Shown one piece after another: positions 2,112-47,916 of a stretch of DNA of 64,000 nt. The number at the start of each line of letters is the position of its first letter. Position 1 is the stretch's first letter. The notes beneath the pieces are model-generated. The model saw only the letters and a list, made by a program, of their open reading frames with translations, was not told where the DNA came from and did no database searches. The stretch comes from Elusimicrobiota bacterium (GTDB lineage: Bacteria > Elusimicrobiota > Elusimicrobia > FEN-1173 > JAKLIF01), in NCBI GenBank assembly GCA_022709755.1, contig JAKLIF010000001.1, positions 318,661-382,660 of the forward strand, written 5' to 3'. A program made the position numbers and the translations under genes.

Positions 2112-2184
2112 GGCGGGGTAGCTCAGTTGGTAGAGCAGCGGACTCATAAGCCGTTGGTCGCCGGTTCAAATCCGGCCCCCGCTA
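2112..2184 (+). tRNA. tRNA-Met (anticodon CAU), elongator type; tRNA-Ile(LAU) not excluded
   Basis: Cloverleaf folded by hand: acceptor GGCGGGG/CCCCGCT (G1:U72), D-arm GCTC-AGTTGGTA-GAGC, anticodon stem GCGGA/GCCGT with loop CTCATAA (CAT), T-arm GCCGG-TTCAAAT-CCGGC, discriminator A, no encoded CCA. C11:G24 and lack of three consecutive G:C pairs in the anticodon stem argue against an initiator tRNA. Confidence 0.85.
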
Positions 2185-5342: not shown

Positions 5343-6710
5343 CTAGCGGAGCCGCTCGAGGACCGAGCGGCCCGAACTCAACAACCGGGCGAACATCTCC
5401 GCCCGGACGAACGGATAAATCAGATACGGATGGCCCGATTCCAGGACGGCGGCCATCGTCTTCTCGTCAACCCGGTGATCGTCATCCTGCAGCACGACCA
5501 CGCGCCAAGCCCTCGGGAGAAAACCGTCCAACTTGGGATCGCGGGTCCGGCCCGCGTGATAGAGCAACGTGAGCCCGGCCGATTTGGCCGTCTCGAAATA
5601 GCCGCTGCCTTCTGATTCGTCCCCCCCGATCAAAACCAACGTCTCCCCCCGATAGACCGTCGGAACCGACCCGGAAGACGATTCCATCACCTTCTTCAGG
5701 ACCGCGATCGTGGTCCGCTGTTCGGATTGGGTCCGTTGGAGGACCGGGAGATCCCCCTGAAGTTTCACCGCCTCCTCCGACTTCTCCTCAAACACCCGTC
5801 TCAACCGAAGGAGCTCGTGCTCCAGTTCCGCCATCCTCTTCTGATTCTTCTTGATCCGGCCCTCCGCCTCCTGAAGGTCGGCGAGTCGCTTCTCCAACGA
5901 GGCTATTTTAGATTCCAGTTGAACCCGCGCCTTTTCTCCGGCGGAGCCGGCCTGCTGGAGTTTCTTCTGTTCTTCCGTCAGCCGGAGGATCCTCTCTTCC
6001 AGTTCCAGACGCCGATTGTTCTCCTCCCGCCAACGAGCCGACACCGCTTCTTTCTCGATGACCAGTTCATCGACCTCGTTTTTTAAGCGCTTGAGGTCGT
6101 CGCCCTCCTCCAGCGGCGGGAGTTTCCAAAAAGAGTCCTCCCCCTCGGGCGTGAGGCGGTTTTCCCCGGCCGCCCGGACGATCTCATCCAATTTCCCGTC
6201 CTTCTCGGAAACAGTCTTCAATATCTGGAACGCCAACCGACGGAGCGGCTCATTCGTCGATAGGAGGAACAGCCAGAACGTCAAGGGAAACCCCATCCGT
6301 TCGACGAACCGCCAGGGGTTCTTCTGGACATCCCCGACGTTGAGCATCTTCAGGGAATCCGTCTCTTTCCGATGGCCTTCCAGCCATTTCAGCACCAGGT
6401 GGGATTGGAACGGAAGCTCGCGTTGAAGCCGCTTCTTCAATATCTTCACGGCCTCCGCGCGGGGAACGCTGTCCGGACGGTAGCCATGGATCTTGAAACG
6501 AACCACGGTCTCCTTCGCCAGATCGTGCAATAACCGGGGATCCAGATCCTCCAGGAACCAGGTCAACAACGCGTCCGGGACAGACGGCGGGATGGGGAAT
6601 CGGGGCCCGACGGGGCGCGGGGGGACCCCGCGCTGTATGTTCTGTATCGCCCGGAGCGCGTCCAGGTGGATGTTCATTTTTTTAAACGGATCGGGAGGCG
6701 GATGGGGCAT
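5343..6710 (-). CDS. Hypothetical protein: central ~150-aa coiled coil plus a C-terminal alpha/beta domain of unknown function
   Basis: 455-aa ORF. Heptad-rich E/K/L/R segment (LKRLKNEVDELVIEKEAVSARWREENNRRLELEERILRLTEEQKKLQ...LADLQEAEGRIKKNQKRMAELEHELLRLRR). C-terminal LVLIGGDESEGSGYFETAKSAGLTLLYHAG... Last gene of the co-directional block that begins at the TonB-dependent receptor. Confidence 0.7.
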   Translation of the reverse strand: MPHPPPDPFKKMNIHLDALRAIQNIQRGVPPRPVGPRFPIPPSVPDALLTWFLEDLDPRLLHDLAKETVVRFKIHGYRPDSVPRAEAVKILKKRLQRELPFQSHLVLKWLEGHRKETDSLKMLNVGDVQKNPWRFVERMGFPLTFWLFLLSTNEPLRRLAFQILKTVSEKDGKLDEIVRAAGENRLTPEGEDSFWKLPPLEEGDDLKRLKNEVDELVIEKEAVSARWREENNRRLELEERILRLTEEQKKLQQAGSAGEKARVQLESKIASLEKRLADLQEAEGRIKKNQKRMAELEHELLRLRRVFEEKSEEAVKLQGDLPVLQRTQSEQRTTIAVLKKVMESSSGSVPTVYRGETLVLIGGDESEGSGYFETAKSAGLTLLYHAGRTRDPKLDGFLPRAWRVVVLQDDDHRVDEKTMAAVLESGHPYLIYPFVRAEMFARLLSSGRSVLERLR

Positions 6711-6721
6711 GGGCTCCTCTT

Positions 6722-7756
6722 TTATAAAGGCAAGGCGATGTACTCCAGATGAAGGACATCCTGAGTCAGGTTCTCGAAATAGTAAGGGCTATCCGGGGGG
6801 ATCAAGAGATATCCATAATCCATCTCCTGCTGTTCGGACCCGATGTAGGCCAGGCCGCGCCCTTTGCTCACCCGATAGATCAGGCTGAGCCCCTTCTCCC
6901 GCACGGTGACCGTCCTTCCTCCCGGAGGAACGATGAACCCACCCACCCGGTGAGGGGAATTCGTCGGGAGAAGCCCCTGCGACTGATAGAACGGGGCGAC
7001 GTCGAAACGGGCCGCTTCGGACAGTTCTCCGGGGGCCACGACCTGGGTGACCGGCCCCCGCGTCTTCTTGCCCGGAGTCTCGATGGCCTTGAGCAGTCTC
7101 CAGAGATCGCGCGCCAAAACCGCTTCCACCGACCAGTCCTCATGAGGGCGGCCCGGGGAGGACCGGGTCTCATCGGCCTGGATCAACAACGGGGGCATGG
7201 CATTATAGAGCAGTTGCCGCTCGGTCGCCGACTTCAACGACTCATAGCGGGTCATGATATCCCAATAGATCCGGCTTTCCGGCTCTCCCAGTCGCCGGCG
7301 AAGAAGAACGTCCTCCAACAACCCGTCGAATTCACGGCGATAGCGTTCCCAACTCTGAAATACCAGTTTTTCCGCTTCGGGGTCGGCCGGGACGGATCTT
7401 CCCCGGGACCGCTGCATCCGGACCGACTGAGACCGCTGCCGAAGGGATTGAACGTCGCCGTCGAGCGTCGTCGGGGGGGTCCCCCCCGCGACCTTGAACT
7501 GTTCGTGGAGCTCCCGAAGGCGTTCTTCTCCCAGTTTCGTGACCCGCTGATAGTCGTAGTGGGCGGCCCGCACGCGCTCGCAGGTCAACCGAGAGACAGC
7601 CTCCACATCGGCCTTGAACTGTCGGGACGAGGGCGGGTCTCCCGCCCAGAGCGTCGCGGGACAAAGGAGCGAAACGGACACCACGGCGATTCGGCATTGA
7701 TGAGAAAAAAAGACGGGCTTTGACATTCTCCGTCTGTGGAAGAGGGGCGGGATCAT
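6722..7756 (-). CDS. Hypothetical secreted protein (signal peptide), no recognisable domain
   Basis: Probable start at MSKPVFFSHQCRIAVVSVSLLCPATLWAG (signal peptide, start ~7726). 4-bp overlap with the upstream GT-C-like paralog (7753-7756). Confidence 0.65.
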   Translation of the reverse strand: MIPPLFHRRRMSKPVFFSHQCRIAVVSVSLLCPATLWAGDPPSSRQFKADVEAVSRLTCERVRAAHYDYQRVTKLGEERLRELHEQFKVAGGTPPTTLDGDVQSLRQRSQSVRMQRSRGRSVPADPEAEKLVFQSWERYRREFDGLLEDVLLRRRLGEPESRIYWDIMTRYESLKSATERQLLYNAMPPLLIQADETRSSPGRPHEDWSVEAVLARDLWRLLKAIETPGKKTRGPVTQVVAPGELSEAARFDVAPFYQSQGLLPTNSPHRVGGFIVPPGGRTVTVREKGLSLIYRVSKGRGLAYIGSEQQEMDYGYLLIPPDSPYYFENLTQDVLHLEYIALPL

Positions 7757-9537
7757 GATCTTAGTCTATCACGTATGAAACGGTTGGGCAACGAACCGGG
7801 AGGAGGCGACATCCCCGATTCCGTTCGTCCGTGACGGGACTTGAAAACAAAAAGATACACCCTCTCCGTCATCCGATAGCCGACCGCATCGCGATACGAA
7901 TCGAATATCTTCCGATACTTGGTTTTATCGACGAGTTTTTGGAGTCCCTCCATCGTTTCCCGACGGACAACCTCCACGGGGCTCCCCTCTCCCCGTTCAT
8001 CATCGACCACCATGAACAGATAGCGGCGACCGTCGAACAGTCCCAGATGCTTCCGTTGCCACTTCTTGCCGGGAGAGGGAAGGATATCATACATGTTCCA
8101 ATCGAAACGGATATCGTTATAAAATGCCTGGGAATCGACCAAATAGGACACCAAGCCCCAATGATTCCTGATCCCCTGCAGAGTCCCATCGGATTGTATC
8201 CTCACCCCGGTCTCCACAACGGGGATCGGGCCCCCCGGCGGGACCGGCTGTTCCTGTTTCAGGTAATGGAACAGCTGTCTCAGGTCATACAGTTCCTGAT
8301 AATAATCCCTCTCGTTGTATTCCCTCGAATGTCCGTGTTGGGGAGCCAAGACGTGGAACCCGGTCAGTGAAGCCAAACAAAACCATATCAGGAATCGTGT
8401 CTTGGGACCGGACCGCTGTATGATCCTCCAAGACAACAGCACGAAGAGCATGATCCCGGCCGAATAAAAAGCCGTGTAATTGCCGACATAAGTCCTCGGC
8501 ACGGCGATCAAGACCAAAAAATTTGCGGCCACAAACGACGAAAGGAACCCAAGAACCCTCCCCCCTTCTTCCGGCGGACGGGACTGCGCGGATTTCAACC
8601 GGATCCGATAATAGAGGAGCGCCACGGAACAGAACGAATAAAACACCGAAGGACCCCAATACCCCTTCAGGTCTCTCATCACGCTCATGAAAGCCCAAGG
8701 AGAACGACTTCCGATGGTGACCGCGTGGGCGCGAAGCAATCCCTTGAAATCGAAATACGGGAAACCATCCGTTAAAAACCGATTCAAACAATAATCCTCC
8801 CGATATCCATTCCCCAGCAGAAGGGCGACGAAGAAGAGGATGAAGACAACCGGCGCGAATTTTTTATCGGCCGAGAAGAACCAATACACCCAGATGATGA
8901 AAAAATAGAGGTAGGCCGAATAATGGATCCATGTGGAGACATAGAACAGAGCACCGAAGAGGATGAGATATCTCATCCTCCGGCCTTCCATATAAATCCA
9001 ATGAATGTGCAGGGCCCAGACAGTGACACAGGCCAGCGGCAAGAAACCGAAATAGCGTCGCGACATCGCAATGACGTTGGGGGTGGTCAGCAACAACATC
9101 GCCCCCACGAGACTGATCAATTCGTTCCGCGTTTGCCGGAAGAGGAACACAGAGACGGCCAGAGCCAACCCGAGCAAAGCCCAGATCATGCTCATCTTAT
9201 AGACAAACAAGGATTTTCCGAAGACCTGGAAACAGACCGCCAGGACCAGCGTTTGCAAATTCTTTCCATACCAATAGTCGCTCCGATGAAAGAGCAGGTC
9301 CCGAATGCTGTCGCGGATATAGCGGCCGGGATCCCGGTCATAATCCGAATACATCCCGGAAGCGGACAGGATCACACCATCGTGATCGAAAGCGAAGATC
9401 TGGTCGCTGATGGCATAACTCGAGTAATCCAGGACCGTATAGCCGACAATCAACGCCAAACAGAGCCCGAACAGAAGCGGGGTCTTATCAATCTTCGATA
9501 TGTCCAAGAGACGCCTCTCCGCGCGACCGGAAGACAA
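7753..9537 (-). CDS. GT-C-like polytopic membrane protein, paralog 1 of 5 (putative PMT_2/ArnT-like glycosyltransferase)
   Basis: 594-aa ORF. TM1 (LLFGLCLALIVGYTVL), then an ~80-aa loop with the acidic motif FAFDHDGVIL...YSDYDRDPGRYIRDSIRDLLFHR, then ~10 more TM helices, then a ~190-aa C-terminal soluble domain. This topology is typical of GT-C enzymes. Family assignment is a fold-level inference. Confidence 0.8.
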   Translation of the reverse strand: MSSGRAERRLLDISKIDKTPLLFGLCLALIVGYTVLDYSSYAISDQIFAFDHDGVILSASGMYSDYDRDPGRYIRDSIRDLLFHRSDYWYGKNLQTLVLAVCFQVFGKSLFVYKMSMIWALLGLALAVSVFLFRQTRNELISLVGAMLLLTTPNVIAMSRRYFGFLPLACVTVWALHIHWIYMEGRRMRYLILFGALFYVSTWIHYSAYLYFFIIWVYWFFSADKKFAPVVFILFFVALLLGNGYREDYCLNRFLTDGFPYFDFKGLLRAHAVTIGSRSPWAFMSVMRDLKGYWGPSVFYSFCSVALLYYRIRLKSAQSRPPEEGGRVLGFLSSFVAANFLVLIAVPRTYVGNYTAFYSAGIMLFVLLSWRIIQRSGPKTRFLIWFCLASLTGFHVLAPQHGHSREYNERDYYQELYDLRQLFHYLKQEQPVPPGGPIPVVETGVRIQSDGTLQGIRNHWGLVSYLVDSQAFYNDIRFDWNMYDILPSPGKKWQRKHLGLFDGRRYLFMVVDDERGEGSPVEVVRRETMEGLQKLVDKTKYRKIFDSYRDAVGYRMTERVYLFVFKSRHGRTESGMSPPPGSLPNRFIRDRLRS

Positions 9538-11326
9538 AAAGACGCGTGCCCGGATCCATCTGATAATCCACGAGATACTGGTACATTTCCATTACTTTTT
9601 TCAGGAATTTGGAATCCGCCAAGGACCTCATCTGATCCTCCACGTAGACATGATCAAACTTCATGCTTCGTTCAACCCCCTCCATGTGTTTGACAAGGAC
9701 GAACAGATAACGATACCCATCTAACACAGCCACGGCACGGTCATCCGGGGAGACCTCCTCAGGCGATGTTTTGGCCTTCGTCGTCAACGCGTCGAAATGA
9801 TACGGCCTAAAACGGACATCCTCATAGAAAGACTGCGCGTCCACAAAACAGCTCATCATGTAAACGTCACTGAAGTCCTTCTGATAGACCAATTGTTGCT
9901 GATTATTCAAGACCAATCCCGTCCGAAGAGACCCGATCTCCTTGGCTCCCCCTCCGTCCTCCGTTTGCCTGACGTAATGAAAGAACTGCCCCAAACCATC
10001 GCTCCCCTTTATTTCCGACGGGACCCCGAAGCGCCAAACCCCCCCGGCCCGCACGAGTTGCAGCGGGACGACGATAAACAGACAGGCCCATCCGACATTT
10101 CTGAACCAAACCGATGGACTCCTCGTCAAACCCCACGCCATCAAGACATAAAGCAGCGCGCCCGCCGAGTATAACACCACGTAACTCTCCGTCTTAACAA
10201 CGCCGATCAAGCGCATGATGACGATCAGCGAGACCATGATCGCCCCCAAGAACCGCATCGTCCGGATGGTCGCCGCCACCGGCTCCGGATTTTTCCTGTT
10301 CCCGATGAAACAGCGAAGGCCATAAACGATCAGGAGAAATCCGGACATATAAAACAGCGCTTCGCCATACTCCGCTTTCAGTCCATGATGGAAATCAGCC
10401 AGACCCGGACCCGGGTGTTTCCTCAAGAAAACCAGTCCGGAAGAGATCAGATCCGTCACCGGGCCATTCGGAGCGGCCGATCCCAGGATCGGTCCTATTC
10501 TCTTCTGAAACCGGCTCAACCACCACAACAATTGGTCCTTGTTCCATAACAGAACCGACAGATAAAATATCGAATAAACCGCGAGGAAACGACGCTCCTT
10601 CCACACGAACAGGCCGACGACGGCGAACATCATGAAATACAAATAGACCGAATAATGGATCCATGTGCCGACGACAAAAAGAGCGCACAACAGGGCGAAC
10701 CAGCGCCGCCCCCCCTCCTCCTGGTAACGGAGATACGCATAGAGCGCCCAGAGCGCCACGCAGGCCATCGGCAAAAATCCGAAATATCTTCGAGACATCG
10801 TGATCGTGTTCGTCATCGTCAATAAGAGCAGCGCCCCCCACAGGCCGGCCAGTTCACTCCGCGTTTCGCGATAAAGCAGGAGATAGGCGGCCAGGACCAG
10901 ACCCAGAAGCGCCCAGATCATGCTCATTTTATAGACGATCAATGTCTTTCCGAAAAGCATGAAGCAGCCCGCCAGGATCAGCGTCTGTAGATTCTTCGTA
11001 TACCACCGGTCTCCGCGGTGAAAAAGGATATCCTGAACGCTCTCCCGCAGATATCGCCCGGGAGCCCGCTGATCATAATCCGAATAGATCCGGGCGGAGG
11101 ACAAGATCATATAATCATGATCGATGACGTAATCGCGATCGGTGATTGAATACACATAATGGCCAGCCCAAGCATAGCCACAGACCGTCAGCAAGCAGAG
11201 ATAAAACAGGATCTTGTTCTTGAACAGACGGGTTTTCATCATCGGCCAGAGCGAGGAGAGACGGGAGGCCCCCCGTCCGGACAACGGGACCACGGGATTA
11301 ACGCGGGGCACTTCCTGCCCGAGCAT
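9488..11326 (-). CDS. GT-C-like polytopic membrane protein, paralog 2 of 5
   Basis: 612-aa ORF; true start probably MMKTRLFKNKILFYLCLLTV (~11242). Loop motif VIDHDYMILSSARIYSDYDQRAPGRYLRESVQDILFHRGDRWYTKNLQTL. Core ~60 % identical to paralog 1. Confidence 0.8.
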   Translation of the reverse strand: MLGQEVPRVNPVVPLSGRGASRLSSLWPMMKTRLFKNKILFYLCLLTVCGYAWAGHYVYSITDRDYVIDHDYMILSSARIYSDYDQRAPGRYLRESVQDILFHRGDRWYTKNLQTLILAGCFMLFGKTLIVYKMSMIWALLGLVLAAYLLLYRETRSELAGLWGALLLLTMTNTITMSRRYFGFLPMACVALWALYAYLRYQEEGGRRWFALLCALFVVGTWIHYSVYLYFMMFAVVGLFVWKERRFLAVYSIFYLSVLLWNKDQLLWWLSRFQKRIGPILGSAAPNGPVTDLISSGLVFLRKHPGPGLADFHHGLKAEYGEALFYMSGFLLIVYGLRCFIGNRKNPEPVAATIRTMRFLGAIMVSLIVIMRLIGVVKTESYVVLYSAGALLYVLMAWGLTRSPSVWFRNVGWACLFIVVPLQLVRAGGVWRFGVPSEIKGSDGLGQFFHYVRQTEDGGGAKEIGSLRTGLVLNNQQQLVYQKDFSDVYMMSCFVDAQSFYEDVRFRPYHFDALTTKAKTSPEEVSPDDRAVAVLDGYRYLFVLVKHMEGVERSMKFDHVYVEDQMRSLADSKFLKKVMEMYQYLVDYQMDPGTRLFVFRSRGEASLGHIED

Positions 11327-11332
11327 CGACGA

Positions 11333-13108
11333 TCACACCCCTTCCGAGGACGGGGGAACGCCACGTTTCGCTCGAAAGACGATGAGCCGGCGCCCCGGGG
11401 CCCCCATACCATAATGCACCAGATACCGATAGTTTCTCGTGACCTCCGCGAGAGCATTGTTTCCCGCCGTCTCTTTCACCGCAGAAAAAACCCGGTCCGG
11501 AAGAACATCCGAACCCTGCGGTGTGAACACGAAGAGGACGGGAATCTCTTTCGAAATATCTTTCTTCTTCCCCAATGAAGCATCCCCCCGTCTCCCCGCC
11601 GACAACCCCGCCTCCTCACACAGACCTTCCCATTCCAATCGCACGCCTCCATAAAAAGCCTGGGCGGTGATCAATTCATCGTGGATGTTCGGCCTCCCTT
11701 TAAACAACGGAGGGCACGTCCAGCGCGATTCTCCGGCCTTGTCTTTTTCTATGAAACCCACCATCGCCGGGATGGTCTTATCACCCGACGGGACATAATT
11801 ATTTTTTAAATAATGCATCAATTGGGAGAGGTCAATCATTTCATTGGACATCCGATAGGTATTGGAAGGCCGGGGGGCATTCCAAGACACCGCCATCACG
11901 GTGCCGACCAGACAGCTCCACGAGAACACCCTGAGCCAGGGGCCCCCCGACCGCCCCATATCCCACAAGATAAGAACGAAAAGCAAGACCCCCACCACAT
12001 AAAACACCACATAGTTGGACAATTGGACGATGTCGTTCATGAACATCGCCAGGGCGATGCCGGCCAAGACAGCGGCCAAAATCTTTATTCCAAACCGGGA
12101 CCTCGAGAGATCGTCGGCCTTCCTCTTTAAATGCCACAGAGCGTATAGGAACGCCGAAAAGACATAAAGATAGAATACCACTCCTCCGAACTGATATCGA
12201 AGTATGTCATACTCCGCTCGGTAATGCCGCGAGAAAATGCCGTGAATGACGTATCGACACGCCTTCATTGTTTTGTCCGCAATCCCGTTGAGTCCGCCCA
12301 GCGGGCCCTCCTCATAGAATTGCCACTGCAAGCCGAGTGTCTGATGGATGTTCATCATGAGTACCCCGACATAAAGAAGGAAGAAGAGCCCCGCGGAAGT
12401 CCGGCGACGAGGGATCATCAACAGGAGAACCCCCATCACAAGGAAATAGAGGTAGGCGGAATAATGGGTCCAACTGGCGACATAGAACACCCCGCAGAAA
12501 AGAAGGAAATACCGTTTCCCGTGATCCTGGAGATAAAGCAAGAAAGCACAGGCACCCCATAGGAACAGGCAAGCCAGGGGGATGAACGCAAAATACGTGC
12601 GAGACATCGCGACGATGTTCGGGATGAGGAGCATCAGGAGCGTTCCCAGAAGTCCGACCATTTCGCTTCGGGTCAGGACATACAAAATGCAGTATCCCGC
12701 CAGCGCGAGCCCGAGGAGCGCCCAGATCATGCTCATCTTATAGACGAACACCGTTTTCCCGAATAGTGCGAACAGGATGGCGAGGACCGTCGTATGGAGA
12801 CGACAGGCGTCCCCTTGCCGGCGCCAGGGAGCCACCATATCTTGAAAACACCGCCGAATGTAACCCGCCGGATCCTCCGAATACACCGAATAGAACCCGG
12901 CCTTCTCCAGAATGACGCAATCATGTTCGACCACGAAATTCCTATCACTGACGGCATATCCGTACTGCATCACGCACACATGAGCACAGATGAAGAGCAG
13001 GCATATCCCCGCAAGGATCTTGTTGTGATAGGACCGCATCAGGACAGTCCCCGCTCCGCCGATCCATCCGCGCAGAACAGCTGTCATACCGGTCATCGAC
13101 ACCGTCAT
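11333..13108 (-). CDS. GT-C-like polytopic membrane protein, paralog 3 of 5
   Basis: 591-aa ORF; probable start MRSYHNKILAGICLLF (~13039). Loop motif VVEHDCVILEKAGFYSVYSEDPAGYIRR. Core VYKMSMIWALLGLALAGY...MSRTYFAFIPLACLFLWG. Confidence 0.8.
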   Translation of the reverse strand: MTVSMTGMTAVLRGWIGGAGTVLMRSYHNKILAGICLLFICAHVCVMQYGYAVSDRNFVVEHDCVILEKAGFYSVYSEDPAGYIRRCFQDMVAPWRRQGDACRLHTTVLAILFALFGKTVFVYKMSMIWALLGLALAGYCILYVLTRSEMVGLLGTLLMLLIPNIVAMSRTYFAFIPLACLFLWGACAFLLYLQDHGKRYFLLFCGVFYVASWTHYSAYLYFLVMGVLLLMIPRRRTSAGLFFLLYVGVLMMNIHQTLGLQWQFYEEGPLGGLNGIADKTMKACRYVIHGIFSRHYRAEYDILRYQFGGVVFYLYVFSAFLYALWHLKRKADDLSRSRFGIKILAAVLAGIALAMFMNDIVQLSNYVVFYVVGVLLFVLILWDMGRSGGPWLRVFSWSCLVGTVMAVSWNAPRPSNTYRMSNEMIDLSQLMHYLKNNYVPSGDKTIPAMVGFIEKDKAGESRWTCPPLFKGRPNIHDELITAQAFYGGVRLEWEGLCEEAGLSAGRRGDASLGKKKDISKEIPVLFVFTPQGSDVLPDRVFSAVKETAGNNALAEVTRNYRYLVHYGMGAPGRRLIVFRAKRGVPPSSEGV

Positions 13109-13120
13109 ATTGGAACGCCC

Positions 13121-14941
13121 CTAGACACCCTCATCACGCGCCCCGGCGGGTCCCGCCTCACGGCTCCCCGCGGGCCTTTTCCCATAGACGTAGAAATACA
13201 GCCCCTCGGTCGCTTTAAAACCGGTCATATAACGGAACGGGCTGAATATCTTCCGATAAGCAACGGAGCCGATGTTATCCCGGATGACATGGGCTACCCG
13301 TTCTTGGGTGGCCTCTGTCGCCATGTCTTGGCGGTCACGCCAGTCGACCAAGACGATCAGATAGTGATATTCGGAGGCTGTATCCGCCGCTTTGTCCGGA
13401 GGGATCCATTTACCGACAAAACCGGGCAAATGGGTCTCGAGCGGATCGAAGTATTGTGTCTGGAATATCACGTCATGGAAGAATGCCGGAGAATCAAGGT
13501 AATTCCTGAACGGGTGTATATAATAAAAGTTGCCGACATATTTCAACTGTCCGTCGGGAGCGGCGCGAAGACCCGTCCGCAACGTTTTAATGACAGTCAT
13601 CCCGTCCATGTTCCGGAATCCTTTCATGTAGTCCACGAGAAGACCCGGATCATACACATCCCGCGGATAATCTCTTTCATTATATGCGGGAGGGTGTCCG
13701 TGGTACGGCGACGCCGCATGATACAACGCCAGACCGACCAGGCAAATCCAAGCCGATCCGCTGACCCAACTATTTTCATACCGGCTTAATTCCCATAACA
13801 CCAAGACCGTCAACAGGATCCCGGCCACATAGACGGAAAGGAAATTGATGCTTTCCACGCACACGAACACGTTCATAATGAGGAAGCTGCCCGCCAAGAA
13901 CGCCGCCAGAAGCATCATCGCCTTCCTGGTTGCGCAATCCGACCACTTCCGTCCTCTCCGGAGAGAGCCGGCATAAACCAGGATGCCGAGGATGAGCGCA
14001 TAAAACACATTGCTCCCCAAATGGCCCCGGAAGTTCATGATGATGCCCTTCAAAGCGTTCCAAGAGGTGTCTTCGAAGATATAGCCGACATAAGCCTTGA
14101 CGCGCAGGAGAATGCCGATGTCAGCGGACGGAGCGCCCCCTACTGTTTCAGCGCCGAAAAGCATGCTGAACCATAGAGCATATTTAGGGCTGTTCCAAAG
14201 AATGATCCCGATGACGATCGATAGGAACGACAATGCGGCACGCCGGTCTTGGATCAGCCAATAGGCGCCGAAGATCCCGGCATAGAGGTAGATCGAATGA
14301 TGGGCCAATGAGCCCAGATAAAATAATGCGCACACCATTGCGAAGTAACTCGTCCTCCTGTTCTCCTCATACAACAGAAAGACATGGAACGCCCACAACA
14401 ACAGGCACGCCACCGGCAGGAAACCAAAATATTTCCGGGAGTTTGTGATCACGCTTGGGAGTGTCACCAGGAGGAGGGTCCCCGACAAAGCGGTCAATTC
14501 GCTTTTTGTCTGCCTGAACAGGAACACGTACGCGGCCAACGCCAAACCCAACAACCACCACACTAAACTCATTTTATAGGCCACCAACGTTTGGCCGAAC
14601 ACCAGAAAGAACAACGACAGTGTCAGAGATTGGATGGTCTGGCCGCGCCAGTTCTCCCCCCGGTGAAGGACCATCCCCTGAACACCCTCTTTGATGTGTG
14701 ACCAGGGCCCGTATTCCTCATTATCGAATATATGCGCGAGATGCAAATAGGGATAATCATGATCCACCGCAAAGGAGGGATCGCTGACAGCATATCCCCA
14801 TTGCATCAGGACGACATACCCACACAGGAACACGATACACATCCAATGCAAAACCCCGCCGGAATATACTTTTGATGATTTGATCGAATGGTTCATCGTC
14901 TCAAGCCACTGCGCCATGAAGAAGGTCCGTTGGTCATGCAT
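13121..14941 (-). CDS. GT-C-like polytopic membrane protein, paralog 4 of 5
   Basis: 606-aa ORF. Loop motif AVDHDYPYLHLAHIFDNEEYGPWSHIKEGVQGMVLHRGENWRGQTIQSL. Core AYKMSLVWWLLGLALAAYVFLFRQTKSEL...NSRKYFGFLPVACLLLWA. Confidence 0.8.
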   Translation of the reverse strand: MHDQRTFFMAQWLETMNHSIKSSKVYSGGVLHWMCIVFLCGYVVLMQWGYAVSDPSFAVDHDYPYLHLAHIFDNEEYGPWSHIKEGVQGMVLHRGENWRGQTIQSLTLSLFFLVFGQTLVAYKMSLVWWLLGLALAAYVFLFRQTKSELTALSGTLLLVTLPSVITNSRKYFGFLPVACLLLWAFHVFLLYEENRRTSYFAMVCALFYLGSLAHHSIYLYAGIFGAYWLIQDRRAALSFLSIVIGIILWNSPKYALWFSMLFGAETVGGAPSADIGILLRVKAYVGYIFEDTSWNALKGIIMNFRGHLGSNVFYALILGILVYAGSLRRGRKWSDCATRKAMMLLAAFLAGSFLIMNVFVCVESINFLSVYVAGILLTVLVLWELSRYENSWVSGSAWICLVGLALYHAASPYHGHPPAYNERDYPRDVYDPGLLVDYMKGFRNMDGMTVIKTLRTGLRAAPDGQLKYVGNFYYIHPFRNYLDSPAFFHDVIFQTQYFDPLETHLPGFVGKWIPPDKAADTASEYHYLIVLVDWRDRQDMATEATQERVAHVIRDNIGSVAYRKIFSPFRYMTGFKATEGLYFYVYGKRPAGSREAGPAGARDEGV

Positions 14942-14944
14942 GTC

Positions 14945-16714
14945 TCAGGGCCTCCTGTTCCGATAGACGGTGAGTGTCATCCCCATGTCGATCGGATAAT
15001 GGGCCAGTAAACGATAAGACTCACCCATTCTCCGGTGCGACAACGGGTCCCCGTTTTGTTCTAAATATTTCTCAAAACATCGCGCCCGACCCTCCCGATC
15101 GTCCATCTCCCGGCGCTCATCGCCCACGAACACGAAGAGATAATCATATGGCTTCCCCCCTCGATCCATGTCATTATCCACCAAATCCCGCATGGCTTTC
15201 TGCGATGCGAGCCCCGCCGGGGGATTCAAAATAACCCACGATATCCTCATGGAGCTGTAAAACGCCCTTGAATCCAAGCAAGAGATGTTCTTTTTGAGGT
15301 CGTACATCTTATCGCACTGCCCGCCGGATCCCATTTCCGCCCCCGCGACGAGGCAAACCGTGGATCCCCGTTTTGAGGCATCTTGTTCCGTTTGGATATA
15401 GTGCATGAGTTGAACCAAATCGAGCTCTTCTCCCTGCCCCCAATATTTGCGGACACGCTCGTATCGGGCCGAATAAACATCCTGTTGAGACAGCACCAAG
15501 ACAACAAGGATCCCGAAGACACAGGTCCCCATCCATCGGGGCATATATCGACTCATATCCCATAACAAGAGTGTCAACAAAATGGCTTCGAGCACATAGA
15601 ACATGGTGAAATTTCCCGCCGCCACACCCGACGTCATCAACATGACGGACAACAGGGCCCCCATGCAAAACAAAAGAAAGGCGACGACGGCGTCGACCTC
15701 TCTTTTTCCGTCGATCCGAGGTCTGATGTATTTCCGATGAAACCAGATATAGACCGGCAACAGAGCCGCCAACAGGGAATAGGTGGCCGGCCCCCCGTGC
15801 CTCTTCAGTCCTCGGAAACAGAACATCATCCCTCGATAGAAATCATGTCCATCACCCACGGCCAAGGGAGTCAACGGGAGCCCCCCATGGAATAAATTCA
15901 GGAACGAAAAAAACCATCTCGGCATGACGTTCATGTCCTTATAGAAGAGCATGAAAAACACGAGGAGGAATGCGATCGCAACGCGCCTCGTGTTCGGCCG
16001 CAAAAACAAATAAAAACCCAATATCCCGAAATAAAGATATCCCGAATAATGGGTTCGGACGGCCATAAAGAACAACATGATGAAAAAAAAGAAATCCCTC
16101 CACCGAAAACACCGGCACATCGAGATACACAGGTTCAAAGCCCACATCATGACGCAGGCCAAGGGAAGAAAACCGAAGTACAAACCAGCCATTTTCACGA
16201 CGTTGGGAAGGACCAATACAAGGAGTGTTCCCAGAAAAGCCGTCATTTCCATCTTGGTCTGCCGATAAAGAAAGACATACACGCCGAACGCCAACCCCAA
16301 TAAAGCCCAGACCATGCTCATTTTGTAGACGAACAGGGTCTTGCCAAAAAAGATGAAACAGAGGGCAAGGATCAGCGTATGAGGACTATATCCTCTTCTC
16401 CCATCGCCGAAACTGAACAACCGGCGCAACGACACCCGAACGTACCCAGGGGGGTTTTGGCTGAACAAAGCGCCCCCCCCCATGAACCCGGCGGCAGTCA
16501 ATATGTCGTAATCATGGTCCGGAGCCACGACGCGATCCGTGATGGCGAATCCATATTGGCCGAGAATGACATAGCCGGTGATGAACAAAAGGCAGAACCA
16601 ATGAAGAAGGACCGATTGATAGGGTTTATTGAATAATGTTGGTTTCATCATCAGACCGATGGGCACGGCGGGAGCCGGCATGGAGCGGAAAGGGGTCATG
16701 GGGCCTGCCATCAA
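14945..16714 (-). CDS. GT-C-like polytopic membrane protein, paralog 5 of 5
   Basis: 589-aa ORF; probable start MMKPTLFNKPYQSVLLHWFCLLF (~16651). Loop motif VAPDHDYDILTAAGFMGGG. Core VYKMSMVWALLGLAFGVYVFLYRQTKMEM...LYFGFLPLACVMMWA. Confidence 0.8.
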   Translation of the reverse strand: MMAGPMTPFRSMPAPAVPIGLMMKPTLFNKPYQSVLLHWFCLLFITGYVILGQYGFAITDRVVAPDHDYDILTAAGFMGGGALFSQNPPGYVRVSLRRLFSFGDGRRGYSPHTLILALCFIFFGKTLFVYKMSMVWALLGLAFGVYVFLYRQTKMEMTAFLGTLLVLVLPNVVKMAGLYFGFLPLACVMMWALNLCISMCRCFRWRDFFFFIMLFFMAVRTHYSGYLYFGILGFYLFLRPNTRRVAIAFLLVFFMLFYKDMNVMPRWFFSFLNLFHGGLPLTPLAVGDGHDFYRGMMFCFRGLKRHGGPATYSLLAALLPVYIWFHRKYIRPRIDGKREVDAVVAFLLFCMGALLSVMLMTSGVAAGNFTMFYVLEAILLTLLLWDMSRYMPRWMGTCVFGILVVLVLSQQDVYSARYERVRKYWGQGEELDLVQLMHYIQTEQDASKRGSTVCLVAGAEMGSGGQCDKMYDLKKNISCLDSRAFYSSMRISWVILNPPAGLASQKAMRDLVDNDMDRGGKPYDYLFVFVGDERREMDDREGRARCFEKYLEQNGDPLSHRRMGESYRLLAHYPIDMGMTLTVYRNRRP

Positions 16715-16785
16715 CGGAAAAGATCCGTCATATCTTCTGAAAACCGATCATCCGGAAATTCCGGGGAGCCGCACAATCCCGCCGG

Positions 16786-18696
16786 TCAGTCGACGAACCA
16801 GATCGTGATTCCCGCCCAATAAGTCCTCGCCACATTGGGGACCAACCCGGTGCTGACGGATTCGATGAAACGCTTGTTCGTTATATTATCCACACCGAGA
16901 TAAAGATCGGAACTCAGGATCTTCTTGACCAACCTCGCGTGCCAGAGGGTATAGGAGGGGAACCTCATCCCCTGTTCGTTATCATATTGAAAACGATGGT
17001 GCACGTATTGCACCGTATTGATCAACCTCCATTTTCTGGGGAGAGAAGTCGTCAGGCGATAGTTCGCCGTATGACGGGGCGTCATCTGGAGCGGGACGTA
17101 ACGATAGGACCCCATGGAGTTCCCGATCGCCCGCTGATAGGTGTAATTGATACTCTCCTCGAAGGGTCCCCAACGCGAATCCATCTCCGCCTCGCCCCCC
17201 GTCACCTCGGCCCGCGGAGCATTCTCATAAACCGCCGATTTCGCCGCAATCCGTTCCCTCAACTGAGAATGAAAACCCGTCAGTTTCAACGAGAATGTCT
17301 TTCCAGACCGCCATTCCGTCCCGGCGTCATAAGTCCAGGCGGTTTCGGGTCTCAAGAAGATATTCCCCAAAGTTCCGCTCGACGAGTAGAGTTCGGTGAA
17401 CGAGGGGGCGCGGAACGAGCGGGCGGCGCTGCATGAAAGCCTCCAATTCGGGGTGGCCCGAAAAACGATCGCCAATCGTGGATTCACCACGTTACCGAAC
17501 GCGCTGTGCTGGTCCAGTCGCACTGTGGGGATCAGATCGCATCGGTCTCCCTCCCAATGCTCCTGCACGGTGACGCCCCACGAGGCGGCATGATGCGGCG
17601 TTCCCCCCTCAATCAACTCTTCATCCCGTTCATAGGAACCCCCGACGCTGAAACCGCCGGGGAACTGAAGTCGCGTGGTGTTTCCGACGACCTGGTTGAC
17701 CCGTTCCATATCCGGATCAGCACCGCTGGACGGACGGGTCAGATATTTCTGTCTGGACCCATAGGACATCGTCTGCAATCCCGCGGGGGACTCCCCGAGG
17801 GGGAGCGACAAGGTGAGCCGACCCAGATCGGTCGTCTGTTCCACACGACGCCATCGGTTCGACGGCTCTTTTTCCCGCCGCCCATCCCACCGGTCAACGG
17901 GAATCGGGGTCCCCTGGGGATCTCCGGTCTCCTGACTCACGCGGGACAGGGCCAGGGAGATCCGCGTTCCGTTCTGGGCCGTGTATTCGCCATTCCCGGT
18001 CAGAGCCGCATTGTGCCCCTCGGAATTCGTCTGGTATCCACCCGTGTAATACTTGCTCCCCGTGATATAGGTATCAAACCCCTTGCCCCCCGTGCCCAGT
18101 TGAGCGTTATACATGCGGACCGGATAAGAACGTCTTTCCCCGCTGGAAATCGGATAAGAGCGGGTTTGATATCCGAAAGAAGAATGGGCCTTCTCGGCGG
18201 TGTGCCGTTTGGTGATGACATCGATGACCCCGCCCAAGGTGTTGGCTCCATGGACCATGGAGGACCCTCCTCGGACGACCTCAATCTTCTCGATGTTATC
18301 GACGGGGATCTGAGAGAGATCGACGAACTGGGAAGAGACCCCTCCCAACGGCTGGCCATCGATCAGGATCCGGCACGAGGCGGGCGACGGCAGTCCCCTC
18401 ATCCGGCATGTTGCCATGGAACCCAAGGCGCCCGTCTTCTGGACGTCGATCGAAGGCAATCGGTCCAGGACGTCGGCCAGAGATTGGCCTCCCGTGTTCC
18501 GAATCTCCTCTTTCCGGTAGACAGTGATATTGGTGGGTAAGCGGCGTGAATCTGTCTTTGACAGCGTATAGGACAAAAACTCCGAATCCGGATCGACCTT
18601 CTGCGCCGCCATCGACCGCGTCTTCGTAAAAAAGAATGTGATCGTCGCCAATGCGACGAAGGTTCTTAGCCGCATCTCAAATGAGACAAAAAACAT
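16786..18696 (-). CDS. TonB-dependent outer-membrane receptor
   Basis: Signal peptide (MRLRTFVALATITFFFT). Plug-domain motifs ...ITVYRKEEIRNTGGQSLADVLDRLPSIDV... and IEKIEVVRGGSSMVHGANTLGGVIDVITK. Long beta-barrel region rich in alternating aromatic residues. C-terminus ...TYWAGITIWFVD. Confidence 0.88.
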   Translation of the reverse strand: MFFVSFEMRLRTFVALATITFFFTKTRSMAAQKVDPDSEFLSYTLSKTDSRRLPTNITVYRKEEIRNTGGQSLADVLDRLPSIDVQKTGALGSMATCRMRGLPSPASCRILIDGQPLGGVSSQFVDLSQIPVDNIEKIEVVRGGSSMVHGANTLGGVIDVITKRHTAEKAHSSFGYQTRSYPISSGERRSYPVRMYNAQLGTGGKGFDTYITGSKYYTGGYQTNSEGHNAALTGNGEYTAQNGTRISLALSRVSQETGDPQGTPIPVDRWDGRREKEPSNRWRRVEQTTDLGRLTLSLPLGESPAGLQTMSYGSRQKYLTRPSSGADPDMERVNQVVGNTTRLQFPGGFSVGGSYERDEELIEGGTPHHAASWGVTVQEHWEGDRCDLIPTVRLDQHSAFGNVVNPRLAIVFRATPNWRLSCSAARSFRAPSFTELYSSSGTLGNIFLRPETAWTYDAGTEWRSGKTFSLKLTGFHSQLRERIAAKSAVYENAPRAEVTGGEAEMDSRWGPFEESINYTYQRAIGNSMGSYRYVPLQMTPRHTANYRLTTSLPRKWRLINTVQYVHHRFQYDNEQGMRFPSYTLWHARLVKKILSSDLYLGVDNITNKRFIESVSTGLVPNVARTYWAGITIWFVD

Positions 18697-18720
18697 CCTT
18701 CATCATCGGATCGCGTCCCC

Positions 18721-19077
18721 TCAACCCAACTTCTTCATTTTAGCCAAAAGCCCGATCACCTCGGTCGTCTTGCTTCTAAACGGTGATTGGGGGTTGTCGA
18801 GTATGGCCAACGCCTCGGTGATTTTATTCGAATTAACCAGATTGACGATTTCCGCAGCGTATCGATGGAACTCCGCATGAATCTCAATCAATTTCTGGAA
18901 ATCGGGGGAACTCCCGAATTTTTCCTTCGCCTCTCCGTGGATCCATTTCCCCAGATCACACCGGTTATCTTTATTGACCAGATTCGAATCCAGGTTCTCT
19001 TTTCGATCGGCTTTGCAATAATCCCGAAGTCTCATCTTCCAATTCACATGAGCCTGCATGGCTTCATCGATGTTCAT
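18721..19077 (-). CDS. Stand-alone CZB (chemoreceptor zinc-binding) domain protein
   Basis: 118 aa with the CZB signature H-x2-W ... C-x-LGKW-x-H ... FH (AHVNWKMRLRDYCKADRK...NRCDLGKWIHGEAKE...EIHAEFHRY). GC content markedly lower (~48 %) than surrounding genes. Confidence 0.8.
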   Translation of the reverse strand: MNIDEAMQAHVNWKMRLRDYCKADRKENLDSNLVNKDNRCDLGKWIHGEAKEKFGSSPDFQKLIEIHAEFHRYAAEIVNLVNSNKITEALAILDNPQSPFRSKTTEVIGLLAKMKKLG

Positions 19078-19272
19078 GACACACCTCCATCGTCATTAAA
19101 GTCATTTTCATTATAAGAGTATTACCCGTAAACCGCAACAGCATATTCCCGCCGGGGAACACCCCCGACCACCGTCTTTTCAGTATTTAAAACGCGGGCC
19201 GCGCGGAAACGACACGATTAATCTTCTCACTCGGGCGTCCTTATCTTATAATTCTACCAGGAAGCGACAGAC
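19078..19272. promoter_or_regulatory. Divergent promoter region between the CZB gene (-) and the SGNH hydrolase gene (+)
   Basis: AT-rich. TATAAT at 19247-19252, ~20 nt upstream of the SGNH ATG, with an AGGAAG SD. On the other side it is the likely promoter for the CZB-TonB-dependent receptor-GT-C block. Confidence 0.3.
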
Positions 19273-20229
19273 ATGGCATTTTTTCATACATTAAAAACAT
19301 CCTTCTCCACGCTCATCAAGATCGCCGGGAAAATCATCCTCATCTTGATCCTCACCGAGATCGTATTGGGTACCACTGGAATCCTGCTTTTAACCTACTA
19401 CAGGCATTTCGTCTATTCCAAGATCCCGTTATTAAAGGACGAACACAGGATTCTGTTTATCGGCGAATCGACGACCTGTGGAGACGGCTCCACCAACAAA
19501 CAAACGGACTCATACCCGGCCCAACTTGAAAGGATTCTGAATTCTCAAACCCCCCGCAACCGGTTCCGGTCGATCAATATCGGGTTCGGCGGTCTGACGA
19601 CAGAACACATGCTCAGAGACCTAAAAGAAAATATCTATCGGTATAAGCCAGACATCGTGGTGATCCAGGCGGGATTCAACAATTGTTCCCCCAGCCTGTT
19701 CACCCTATTCAAAGGCCAATCCTTGCCGGCGGCCTGGAGGAAGATCGTCATCATGAAATTGGAGATGTCGCGGACCTATCGTCTCATGAAATGGGCCTAT
19801 GAGTCCGTCTGGAAACAATGTTTGCTGCGCTACCTGCAGAACCGTGGGTTCACCCCGACATCAAATCCGGGGTTTTGGGTGACCGACATGTATCCGGAGG
19901 AATACCAAATAACGAAGGTGGAATCGGAAATACACCTATGCCGGATGATCGAAATCCTCCGCGAACACAACATCCCGCTCGTCCTGTGCGGGTATTTCAT
20001 CGCCGAAGACGAGAACATCATGCTGCGCCGGTTATCAAAGACATACGCCGTCCCCTTTTGCGACAATGAGTTGGAGGACACGCCGTTCAATAGAAAGGAA
20101 TACATATCCGTGGACCAATTCCATCCCAACACGAACGGATATTTCCTCATCGCCCAGAATCTATTCAAGACGTTGACCGACCATCATCTCATCCCAGAAA
20201 CCCCTTCCGACCCGTCCACCGCGTCTTGA
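19273..20229 (+). CDS. Membrane-anchored SGNH/GDSL-family hydrolase (esterase/acyl-hydrolase, possibly carbohydrate O-acyl esterase/transferase)
   Basis: N-terminal TM helix (IILILILTEIVLGTTGILLLTYY). Block I FIGESTTCGDGS (GDS-like with nucleophile Ser). Block V DQFHPN (catalytic Asp/His). Low GC (~45 %). AGGAAG SD 8 nt upstream. Confidence 0.8.
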   Translation: MAFFHTLKTSFSTLIKIAGKIILILILTEIVLGTTGILLLTYYRHFVYSKIPLLKDEHRILFIGESTTCGDGSTNKQTDSYPAQLERILNSQTPRNRFRSINIGFGGLTTEHMLRDLKENIYRYKPDIVVIQAGFNNCSPSLFTLFKGQSLPAAWRKIVIMKLEMSRTYRLMKWAYESVWKQCLLRYLQNRGFTPTSNPGFWVTDMYPEEYQITKVESEIHLCRMIEILREHNIPLVLCGYFIAEDENIMLRRLSKTYAVPFCDNELEDTPFNRKEYISVDQFHPNTNGYFLIAQNLFKTLTDHHLIPETPSDPSTAS

Positions 20230-47333: not shown

Positions 47334-47385
47334 TCCTTTTTTCCCCTTTGCTTTATTGGTGGAAGGTGACGATGATTTCGATGAA

Positions 47386-47916
47386 TCAGCGCGGTGAGTC
47401 GACATGCGACAGCTTCCATTTCTCTTTTTCCAAAGCGTTCTGCTTGGTCTTCATATGCTCCCGTTGGTGGCGGCGCTTCAACTTGCGCAGCTCCCCCAGG
47501 AACGCCTCCAGGTCCGCGAACTTCTTGTAGACCGACGCGAACCGCACGTAGGCCACGGGATCCAGCTCGTGAAGTTTCTTCAAGGTGCGCTCCCCGATCT
47601 CCCGGCTCGGCACCTCCAAAACGAAGTCCTGCAACTCATACTCGATCTCCGCCACCATCTTCTCGATGGCATCGGACGAGATGGGCCTCTTCTCGCAAGC
47701 GTGGAGTATCCCGTTCCTCAGTTTGGCCCGGTTGAACGGTTCCCGCCGGTTGTCGTTCTTGATCACCATGAGGGGGGTTGACTCCACCCGTTCGTAGGTG
47801 GTGAACCGTTTCCCGCAATGGCCGCAGACGCGGCGACGGCGGATCAACGTGGCCGATTCCAGGGGCCTGGAATCGATGACTCTGTCTTCAGGATGACGGC
47901 AATAGGGACAACGCAT
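47386..47916 (-). CDS. nrdR: Transcriptional repressor NrdR
   Basis: MRCPYCRHPEDRVIDSRPLESATLIRRRRVCGHCGKRFTTYERVE (zinc ribbon) followed by an ATP-cone. Directly upstream of nrdJ. Confidence 0.92.
   Translation of the reverse strand: MRCPYCRHPEDRVIDSRPLESATLIRRRRVCGHCGKRFTTYERVESTPLMVIKNDNRREPFNRAKLRNGILHACEKRPISSDAIEKMVAEIEYELQDFVLEVPSREIGERTLKKLHELDPVAYVRFASVYKKFADLEAFLGELRKLKRRHQREHMKTKQNALEKEKWKLSHVDSPR

Follow-up and report, generated by a model that had tools for sequence, protein, structure and literature searches.

Glycosyltransferases of the C fold (GT-C) build and decorate envelope glycans, acting in lipid A modification, O-antigen seroconversion, arabinan synthesis and protein glycosylation. 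They join a conserved donor-binding and catalytic module to a variable acceptor module (PMC13503287; PMC11127046). The closest described systems are the ArnT/PMT_2 clan (GT83/GT39-like; PF13231); the diverged paralogs EmbC/A/B and Aft of mycobacteria and ALG3/9/12 of eukaryotes, which act on one glycan (PMC13503287); and the three-component systems GtrA/GtrB/Gtr* and GT136 ORF12, in which a family 2 glycosyltransferase (GT2) supplies the polyprenyl-monophosphate sugar (PMC11127046). Here we describe a locus from an Elusimicrobiota bacterium (assembly GCA_022709755.1, contig JAKLIF010000001.1, positions 318,661-382,660; this whole stretch of 64,000 nt is called the window below) in which five tandem paralogs, predicted to be GT-C enzymes, lie between a TonB-dependent outer-membrane receptor and a predicted secreted protein of 344 aa.

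A sequence-only reading of this stretch had suggested that the receptor and the GT-C-like proteins may be parts of one functional unit. With a probability of roughly 55%, we favor the reading that the block is a mosaic and not one dedicated system, its core being an array of periplasmic-face GT-C glycosyltransferases for envelope decoration that was inserted into a receptor/344-aa gene pair. We are highly confident of the GT-C identity and of the mosaic structure, but only moderately to weakly so of the acceptor. The features of the block, in gene order, are as follows.

19078..19272, no strand: divergent intergenic region of 195 bp between the CZB gene (minus) and a GDSL/SGNH hydrolase gene (plus)
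18721..19077, minus: CZB protein, 118 aa (Pfam PF13682)
16786..18696, minus: TonB-dependent receptor, 636 aa, with Plug and barrel domains
16715..16785, minus: receptor/paralog-1 spacer, 71 bp, upstream junction of the putative insertion
14945..16714, minus: GT-C paralog 1 (P0002); gene callers start at ATG 16699, giving 584 aa
13121..14941, minus: GT-C paralog 2, 606 aa, motifs kept, 29% identical to paralog 1
11333..13108, minus: GT-C paralog 3, 591 aa, placed by the alignment of the five paralogs
9488..11326, minus: GT-C paralog 4, 612 aa, placed by the alignment, with a TIGR03663 match
7753..9537, minus: GT-C paralog 5, likely 584 aa from a likely TTG start at 9507
6722..7756, minus: 344-aa protein, secreted or periplasmic, signal-like segment at the N terminus; start at M11 (7726) in gene calls
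5343..6710, minus: 455-aa cytoplasmic coiled-coil protein with weak coiled-coil matches, last gene of the block

All nine minus-strand open reading frames (ORFs) were found at exactly these coordinates in the ORF list of the window, spanning 5343-19077. The same layout was present in three independent assemblies of the same Elusimicrobiota metagenome-assembled genome (MAG), the public records being JGI 3300010429 and ENA ERZ761563 / NCBI GCA_035390445.1. The block is therefore not a misassembly, and the co-directional run of nine genes described earlier is real.

Fold, motifs and relatives of the five paralogs

The five array proteins (589-612 aa by longest ORF) are 28-36% identical to one another, with paralogs 4 and 5 at 36%, and their DNA shows in-register repeats spaced 1.73-1.84 kb apart. 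No Pfam match was obtained for any of them at E<=0.01. Weak matches to the NCBIfam model TIGR03663 (Agl23, flippase activity-associated, GT-C type) were detected for three of the five at E 0.001-0.03 (0.0025 for paralog 2 and 0.0011 for paralog 4), and PDB sequence searches with two array profiles returned nothing relevant. An AlphaFold2 model made from the five paralogs only had a predicted local distance difference test (pLDDT) score of 51.5 and was set aside. The model of paralog 1 made from a 21-sequence alignment reached a pLDDT of 80.7 and a predicted template modeling score (pTM) of 0.84. In this model, 13 long helices precede residue ~425 and are followed by an alpha/beta C-terminal domain of ~140 residues; hydropathy peaks were present in all five paralogs. 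This agrees with the 7-13 transmembrane helices of the GT-C superfamily. The fold search placed the paralog-1 model close to solved GT-C enzymes, to which the paralogs are only ~10% identical in sequence; ALG9, AftA, AftD, AftB and ALG3 were among the matches lower in the ranking. Furthermore, a comparison with hhalign between the 21-member family and five true PMT_2 proteins encoded by neighboring genes gave a probability of 95.9% (E 5.7e-9) over 159 columns covering transmembrane helices TM1-TM7. In this comparison, the DHD of the family fell on the D that is invariant in the 'DE' motif of the PMT_2 proteins. The fold search and the profile comparison bear out the call of GT-C-like inner-membrane enzymes, and by sequence and model the five ~590-aa paralogs are assigned to the GT-C fold.

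In the alignment and the model, all five paralogs keep D55, where TM1 ends, and (D/E)61-H62-D63, where the first external loop (EL1) starts; paralog 3 has the E (EHD). In paralog 1 numbering, the residues identical in all five are D60, H67 and D68. YKMS, SR and HxS motifs are also kept in all five, and the D...DHD motif is found in most of the 21 family members. By analogy, the D55/DHD site is the predicted equivalent of the catalytic acid position in solved GT-C enzymes, and from their sequences the five paralogs look catalytically competent. The mean pairwise identity among the five was 47% in TM2-8, 19-25% in TM9-13 and 23% in the C-terminal domain. This conserved core with a variable periphery matches the module pattern of GT-C enzymes (PMC13503287; PMC11127046).

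The array proteins resemble the ArnT/PMT_2 clan in carrying an acidic catalytic motif just after TM1 and in being homologous to PMT_2 at the profile level, and the same-genome relative P0007 lies among lipid A/core genes. Unlike clan members, all five fall under every Pfam and NCBIfam threshold, including the PMT_2 gathering score; the C-terminal domain has no match to a known domain; and five tandem copies are found instead of one. No NCBIfam ArnT match was obtained for the array, and no arnBCADEF-type genes were found in the block or its flanks. With the Emb/Aft and ALG enzymes, the array shares diverged GT-C paralogs with a conserved donor-binding module and variable acceptor modules, and for such an array a sequential or site-specific mode of action is the natural model. 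The array differs from them in having no sequence-level relationship to them, and a substrate common to its five members is hypothetical. Also, the host is a diderm Elusimicrobiota with no arabinan or N-glycan pathway evident.

An exhaustive hidden Markov model search over 1.84 billion cluster representatives returned just 21 proteins at E<=1e-3, among them the five of the array itself. Three further members (P0006, P0007 and P0008/P0024) belong to the same MAG, giving eight copies in one species. PMT_2 was matched by five of the 21. Among the same-genome paralogs, only P0007 (E 1e-101 against the array profile) passes the PMT_2 gathering score, at 29.7 versus 26.1 bits; its NCBI name is 'glycosyltransferase family 39 protein'. 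In a neighbor-joining tree, paralogs 1 to 5, P0006 and P0007 formed one clade confined to this genome, in which paralog 3 grouped with P0007, and P0008 and the metagenomic homologs fell outside. A word-indexed homolog search with two array alignments returned same-MAG proteins and one weak PMT match only, scanning 185,579 GTDB species genomes for array motifs brought up neither relatives nor a further array, and literature searches found no description of this GT-C family or of this arrangement in Elusimicrobia.

The genes next to the other family members were as follows.

P0007 (L003): LpxK, GT4, Wzy_C-type ligase, HAD phosphatase, PMT_2-LmeA, DUF3108 and KdsB, a lipopolysaccharide (LPS) core/lipid A cluster
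P0016 and P0019 (L021, L022): GT9 heptosyltransferase, polysaccharide deacetylase, GT2 and GT4
P0008, same organism (L006/L007): GT2 (250 aa), GT-C, NodU-like carbamoyltransferase and B12-radical S-adenosylmethionine (radical-SAM) enzyme
P0010 (L008): the P0008-type module minus GT2, at a contig edge
623-aa homolog (L004): the P0008-type module expanded by PMT_2, GDSL hydrolase and further radical-SAM genes
P0013 (L001/L002): methyltransferase and B12-radical-SAM enzyme
P0018 (L009): GDSL hydrolase, PMT_2, GT2, PMT_2 and GT4
P0006 (L005): PMT_2 gene

In these 11 other family contexts, no TonB-dependent receptor and no CZB, 344-aa or 455-aa homolog was found nearby. By the refuting condition that the sequence-only reading had set for itself, these contexts speak against that reading on the side of the GT-C family, since none of its homologs in them adjoins a receptor or relatives of the hypothetical genes of the block. 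The GT2 neighbors are closest to polyprenyl-phosphate sugar synthases (ArnC, AglJ, PpgS and PgfS), all under the equivalog cut-offs. As in the three-component systems (PMC11127046), the GT-C proteins are expected to use a polyprenyl-monophosphate sugar from a GT2, and such a GT2 directly adjoins P0008 and the homologs at L004 and L009. By contrast, neither a GT2 synthase nor a flippase accompanies the array in the block or its flanks, and no flippase was identified at any examined family locus. The partners of the family elsewhere also differ from those of classical Gtr systems in that they include NodU-like carbamoyltransferases and B12-radical-SAM enzymes.

Three side observations concern these loci. 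The module of GT2, GT-C, NodU-like carbamoyltransferase and B12-radical-SAM enzyme recurs in at least three organisms (L006:9198-15044, L007, L008:193-5163 and L004:7898-15038), which suggests a pathway for a carbamoylated and/or methylated lipid-linked sugar. GDSL/SGNH hydrolase genes adjoin GT-C loci (L004:5288-6337; L009:2450-3463) and the 344-aa homolog (L012:3468-4127; L012-14), and one is also found divergently upstream of the block (window 19273-20229, plus strand), with weak similarity to that of L009 (27% over 85 aa). These recurring neighbors may be coincidental or may be acyl-modification partners. Downstream of the PMT_2 gene and P0006, L005:12665-21725 resembles a defense island, with Peptidase_M78, TIR_2, AAA_21/AAA_15 and PDDEXK_4 domains and a protein of >1193 aa with no domain match.

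The receptor/344-aa pair and the outer genes

The receptor contains a Plug domain (PF07715, E 5e-22) and a TonB_dep_Rec barrel (PF00593, E 7e-43), in agreement with its earlier identification as a TonB-dependent receptor. Its best NCBIfam matches were siderophore and B12 receptor families, all under the cut-offs, and the closest solved structures in a PDB sequence search were CirA (1e-24) and BtuB (4e-21). It is a small CirA/BtuB-class TonB-dependent outer-membrane receptor (636 aa). LSYTLSK (residues ~41-47), ahead of the plug, was picked by eye as a candidate TonB box, and no TonB/ExbBD genes were found in the block. CirA/BtuB-class transporters work with an ABC importer of the BtuFCD/FecBCD type. 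The receptor is like them in its ~600-aa architecture of plug and 22-strand-barrel-type domain, and its orthologue at L011 closes an operon with Peripla_BP_2, FecCD and ABC_tran genes. The window locus differs in having no ABC importer genes; instead, the CZB gene precedes the receptor and the GT-C array follows it. As a side observation, a ribonucleotide reductase with a TSCPD domain, possibly of the cobalamin-dependent class II, is encoded at window 44787-47405 (minus strand). Taken with the B12-radical-SAM genes that the genome carries elsewhere, this enzyme would point to a need for corrinoids, and a BtuB/CirA-class receptor could then be a corrinoid importer. The idea of a cobalamin riboswitch, which came from the BtuB-like receptor, the B12-radical-SAM neighbors and the possible class II reductase, was dropped because the only Rfam match in the window was a tRNA and L011 gave none.

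The 344-aa protein has an N-terminal hydrophobic signal-like segment and is predicted to be secreted or periplasmic. It gave no Pfam match even at E<=10 and no PDB sequence match. A cupin label comes only from the JGI name of its homolog P0027 and was not confirmed by Pfam. Homologs were found only in Elusimicrobia-type genomes: P0027 (52% identical), P0028 (38%) and four more in GTDB Elusimicrobia genomes. Their relation to the receptor was as follows.

L011: 344-aa homolog P0027 (52%) directly downstream, at 128 bp, of a receptor 47% identical over its full length
L015: 344-aa homolog (51%) adjacent to a receptor (46%), convergent
L016: 344-aa homolog (42%) 36 bp from a receptor (37%), co-directional
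L012-14, L017 and L018: 344-aa homolog (36-40%), no receptor nearby

No GT-C family gene was found in any 344-aa homolog locus, and L011, L015 and L016 also contain no CZB or 455-aa homolog. At L011 the receptor follows an asparagine-synthase-like gene and the importer genes named above, forming a classic TonB/ABC import operon. The simplest reading of these gene orders is that the receptor and the 344-aa protein make up an older, recurrent neighboring pair in Elusimicrobia.

Two further observations touch this pair. The asparagine-synthase-like protein of ~320 aa is encoded immediately upstream of the receptor operon at L011:4336-5292 and L015:12880-13863 (58% identical) and is not found in the window. 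Its similarity to asparagine synthase B is confined to the C-terminal, synthetase part, and the protein may be one of the real functional partners of the receptor. At L011:10973-20927 (minus strand), directly downstream of and convergent with the receptor/344-aa pair, lies a giant ORF, 8289 aa long or more, for which no Pfam match is on record.

The 455-aa protein consists of an N-terminal domain, a coiled coil (~203-345) and a small C-terminal alpha/beta domain. Only weak coiled-coil-type matches to SMC, Rad50, JetC and LmuB were obtained, the DUF2325 match of the C-terminal domain was not significant (E 0.26), and no significant domain was detected. No homolog was found in any fetched locus or in plasmids. 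A defense-system reading was rejected, since PADLOC gave only coiled-coil noise for this protein. For the two hypothetical proteins, the earlier description holds as regards the signal-like segment and the absence of a recognizable domain in one and the coiled coil in the other; the C-terminal domain of the 455-aa protein is represented by the non-significant DUF2325 match only.

The CZB protein matches PF13682 over the full model (E 2.7e-15; 56.9 bits versus a cut-off of 29.4), and its predicted zinc ligands are visible in the sequence as His10, Cys40, His67 and His71 (HxxW, C.LGKW and HxxxH contexts). The full-length match and the His/Cys pattern confirm the domain call. The protein is stand-alone and cytoplasmic, and Pfam shows no DNA-binding or enzymatic output domain in it. 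The suggested metal-responsive control, which rested solely on this domain, finds no support here: the CZB protein has no output domain, and no CZB homolog was found beside the receptor orthologues in L011, L015 and L016.

Downstream, the block faces a convergent His_Phos_1 gene, whose end at 5339 is 3 bp away. Housekeeping genes occupy the flanks and the remainder of the window, including those for alkaline phosphatase, enolase, phosphoglucomutase, purine/pyrimidine metabolism, ribonucleotide reductase and catalase-peroxidase. A tRNA gene (window 2112-2184, plus strand; Rfam 70 bits) is followed by the 754-aa alkaline phosphatase (2235-4499, plus strand), which carries CarboxypepD_reg, SdrD_B and FlgD_ig-like domains and looks like a secreted or surface enzyme. 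At window 57064-58995 (minus strand), a 643-aa fusion joins an N-terminal SAM-methyltransferase to Csd3_N2 and Peptidase_M23, which is unusual for a peptidoglycan endopeptidase.

Origin of the block and competing explanations

Since the receptor and the 344-aa gene are adjacent without GT-C genes in three genomes, the simplest reading is that the ~9-kb array was inserted between them in the lineage of the window. The association of the array with the receptor would then most likely be positional. The direction of the rearrangement, insertion rather than loss, we infer from these gene orders. The GC content at third codon positions (GC3) was 0.65-0.68 in the array, 0.70-0.77 in the receptor, 344-aa and 455-aa genes, and 0.74-0.84 in housekeeping genes; the CZB gene had the lowest value in the block, 0.59. 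Around the array, no flanking direct or inverted repeats above chance, no simple-sequence tracts and no mobile-element scars were detected; only the in-register paralog repeats were seen.

With longest-ORF starts, the spacers between the nine genes are 24, 71, 3, 12, 6, -50, -4 and 11 bp in gene order. Paralog 5 has GGAGAGG upstream of TTG 9507, the start that public gene calls use, which leaves a 20-bp overlap with paralog 4. In the same calls the 344-aa gene begins at M11, and a gap of ~26 bp takes the place of the 4-bp overlap; the several 4-bp overlaps reported before were thus overstated, and at most one exists. The 455-aa gene is preceded by a good ribosome-binding site (AGAGGAG), and none of the three candidate starts of paralog 1 has a clear one. 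In a consensus scan, no terminator-like hairpin was found in any minus-strand intergenic spacer of the block, and the 71-bp receptor/paralog-1 spacer had neither a promoter-like nor a terminator-like site on the minus strand. The view of the block as operon-like holds for the co-directional layout and the hairpin-free spacers; one terminator-like candidate lies inside the paralog-3 ORF. This site (11515-11494, minus strand), an 8-bp stem with 5 GC pairs followed by GGGTTTTTTC (T6), lies ~160 nt ahead of the stop codon and may attenuate the downstream paralogs or be due to chance; the scan total was 28 sites against 19.8 +/- 4.3 expected from shuffling, only ~2 sd above. The best promoter-like sites were found in the 195-bp spacer upstream of the CZB gene, which is AT-richer (GC ~0.47). 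Promoter-like hexamers occur there on both strands of 19078-19272, and TATAAT and a GGAGG ribosome-binding site stand ahead of the CZB ATG. This region is the likely promoter of the block, as predicted from sequence, and one transcript over nine genes would be compatible with the spacing and the hairpin-free spacers.

Under the insertion reading, the core (7753-16714) would be a lineage-specific tandem expansion of five GT-C enzymes from a rare branch of the PMT_2/ArnT-like clan. By analogy with solved enzymes, the N-terminal module (TM1, EL1 and TM2-8), with its D...DHD motif, would bind a polyprenyl-phosphate sugar and catalyze its transfer on the periplasmic side of the inner membrane, and TM9-13 with the C-terminal alpha/beta domain of ~150 aa would probably set acceptor specificity. 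As in described systems, the lipid-linked donor would be made on the cytoplasmic face by a GT2 encoded elsewhere in the genome, for which the gene beside P0008 is a candidate, and then flipped (PMC11127046). The five enzymes may add different sugars or linkages, in parallel or in sequence, differing in acceptor site or linkage. The acceptor would be an envelope glycoconjugate, most likely LPS core/lipid A as judged from gene context. The array may be expressed by read-through from the promoter upstream of the CZB gene. The receptor, 344-aa, CZB and 455-aa proteins would be bystanders that are not needed for glycosyltransferase function and may share the transcript.

Several points weigh against this reading. 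The receptor/344-aa pair is not obligate, being convergent in L015 and represented in three further contexts (L012-14, L017 and L018) by the 344-aa homolog without a receptor. Other membrane and accessory genes share the lower GC3, so that it fits insertion only weakly. The paralogs are only ~30% identical, and the duplications are therefore old. With four genomes only, it is possible that the array was lost in other lineages instead. There is no GT2 donor synthase or flippase in or beside the block, and the donor pathway is assumed to lie elsewhere. LPS as acceptor is drawn from three of ~11 paralog or homolog contexts. Finally, genes so closely spaced, with no terminator-like hairpins between them, fit real co-expression with the receptor, which has possibly become functional.

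The five proteins could alternatively be protein glycosyltransferases, either PMT-/TMTC-like O-mannosyltransferases or PglB-like, that act on periplasmic or outer-membrane proteins picked by the diverged C-terminal domains. This is unlikely in our view. PMT_2 is the nearest Pfam family by profile comparison, but it is broad and includes ArnT-like enzymes, and the genes found around paralogs and homologs suggest LPS core/lipid A synthesis instead. The gene that follows the array encodes a secreted protein, but this 344-aa protein would be older at the locus than the array. Moreover, no MIR or TPR acceptor-binding domains were detected in the paralogs by Pfam.

A bolder form of the insertion reading, which we consider doubtful, is that the array is a new CAZy-level GT-C family working as a periplasmic assembly line like ALG3/9/12 or Emb/Aft. 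Each enzyme would draw on polyprenyl-phosphate donors and attach a sugar of its own, which may be carbamoylated or methylated, to the LPS core or to another envelope glycan. Placed within a TonB-receptor operon, the array would be co-expressed with the receptor, tying glycan remodeling to nutrient or metal limitation.

It is quite improbable that the nine genes form one envelope-glycosylation or remodeling system, in which the receptor either takes up the substrate or donor or serves as the target, the five GT-C enzymes act on it, the 344-aa and 455-aa proteins assist and the CZB protein exerts zinc control. The nine co-directional genes with spacers of at most 71 bp, one or two overlaps and no intergenic hairpin, the identical layout in independent assemblies and the single good promoter-like region upstream of the CZB gene all speak for such a unit. 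Against it, none of the 11 other family contexts lies near a receptor, CZB, 344-aa or 455-aa homolog; the receptor and the 344-aa gene stand together without GT-C in three genomes, in one of which (L011) the pair ends the import operon; and the CZB protein has no output domain and is not conserved at the locus. In addition, GT-C donors are built in the cytoplasm on polyprenyl phosphate and are not imported (PMC11127046). These comparisons run counter to the proposal that the receptor and the GT-C battery work as a functional unit.

That the paralogs are non-catalytic GT-C-fold proteins (scaffold or flippase-associated like Agl23, or PIG-U/GAB1-type subunits) or decaying duplicates would agree with the weak TIGR03663 Agl23 matches (E 0.001-0.03), the only direct library matches, and with the high divergence (~30% identity), but is very improbable given that all five are full-length intact ORFs with the EL1 acidic, YKMS, SR and HxS motifs and that the conserved-core/variable-periphery pattern indicates selection.

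Meaning for the GT-C family

The array family is best filed as a new, very narrow GT-C subfamily whose five-fold tandem arrangement is unusual; it demonstrates no new principle. Its practical impact is limited, the host being uncultured and the donor and acceptor being predictions. The block illustrates that a tight co-directional arrangement can be a mosaic that arose when one gene set was inserted into a conserved pair of older origin; spacing that looks operon-like is therefore, taken by itself, no sufficient ground for assuming functional coupling. New glycosyltransferase families are still founded from single characterized members, as with GT136 in 2024 (PMC11127046). Lying below Pfam and NCBIfam detection and being very narrow, the array family is a candidate for a new glycosyltransferase family, and the array itself may be regarded as a natural experiment in which acceptor specificity diversifies on a fixed catalytic module.

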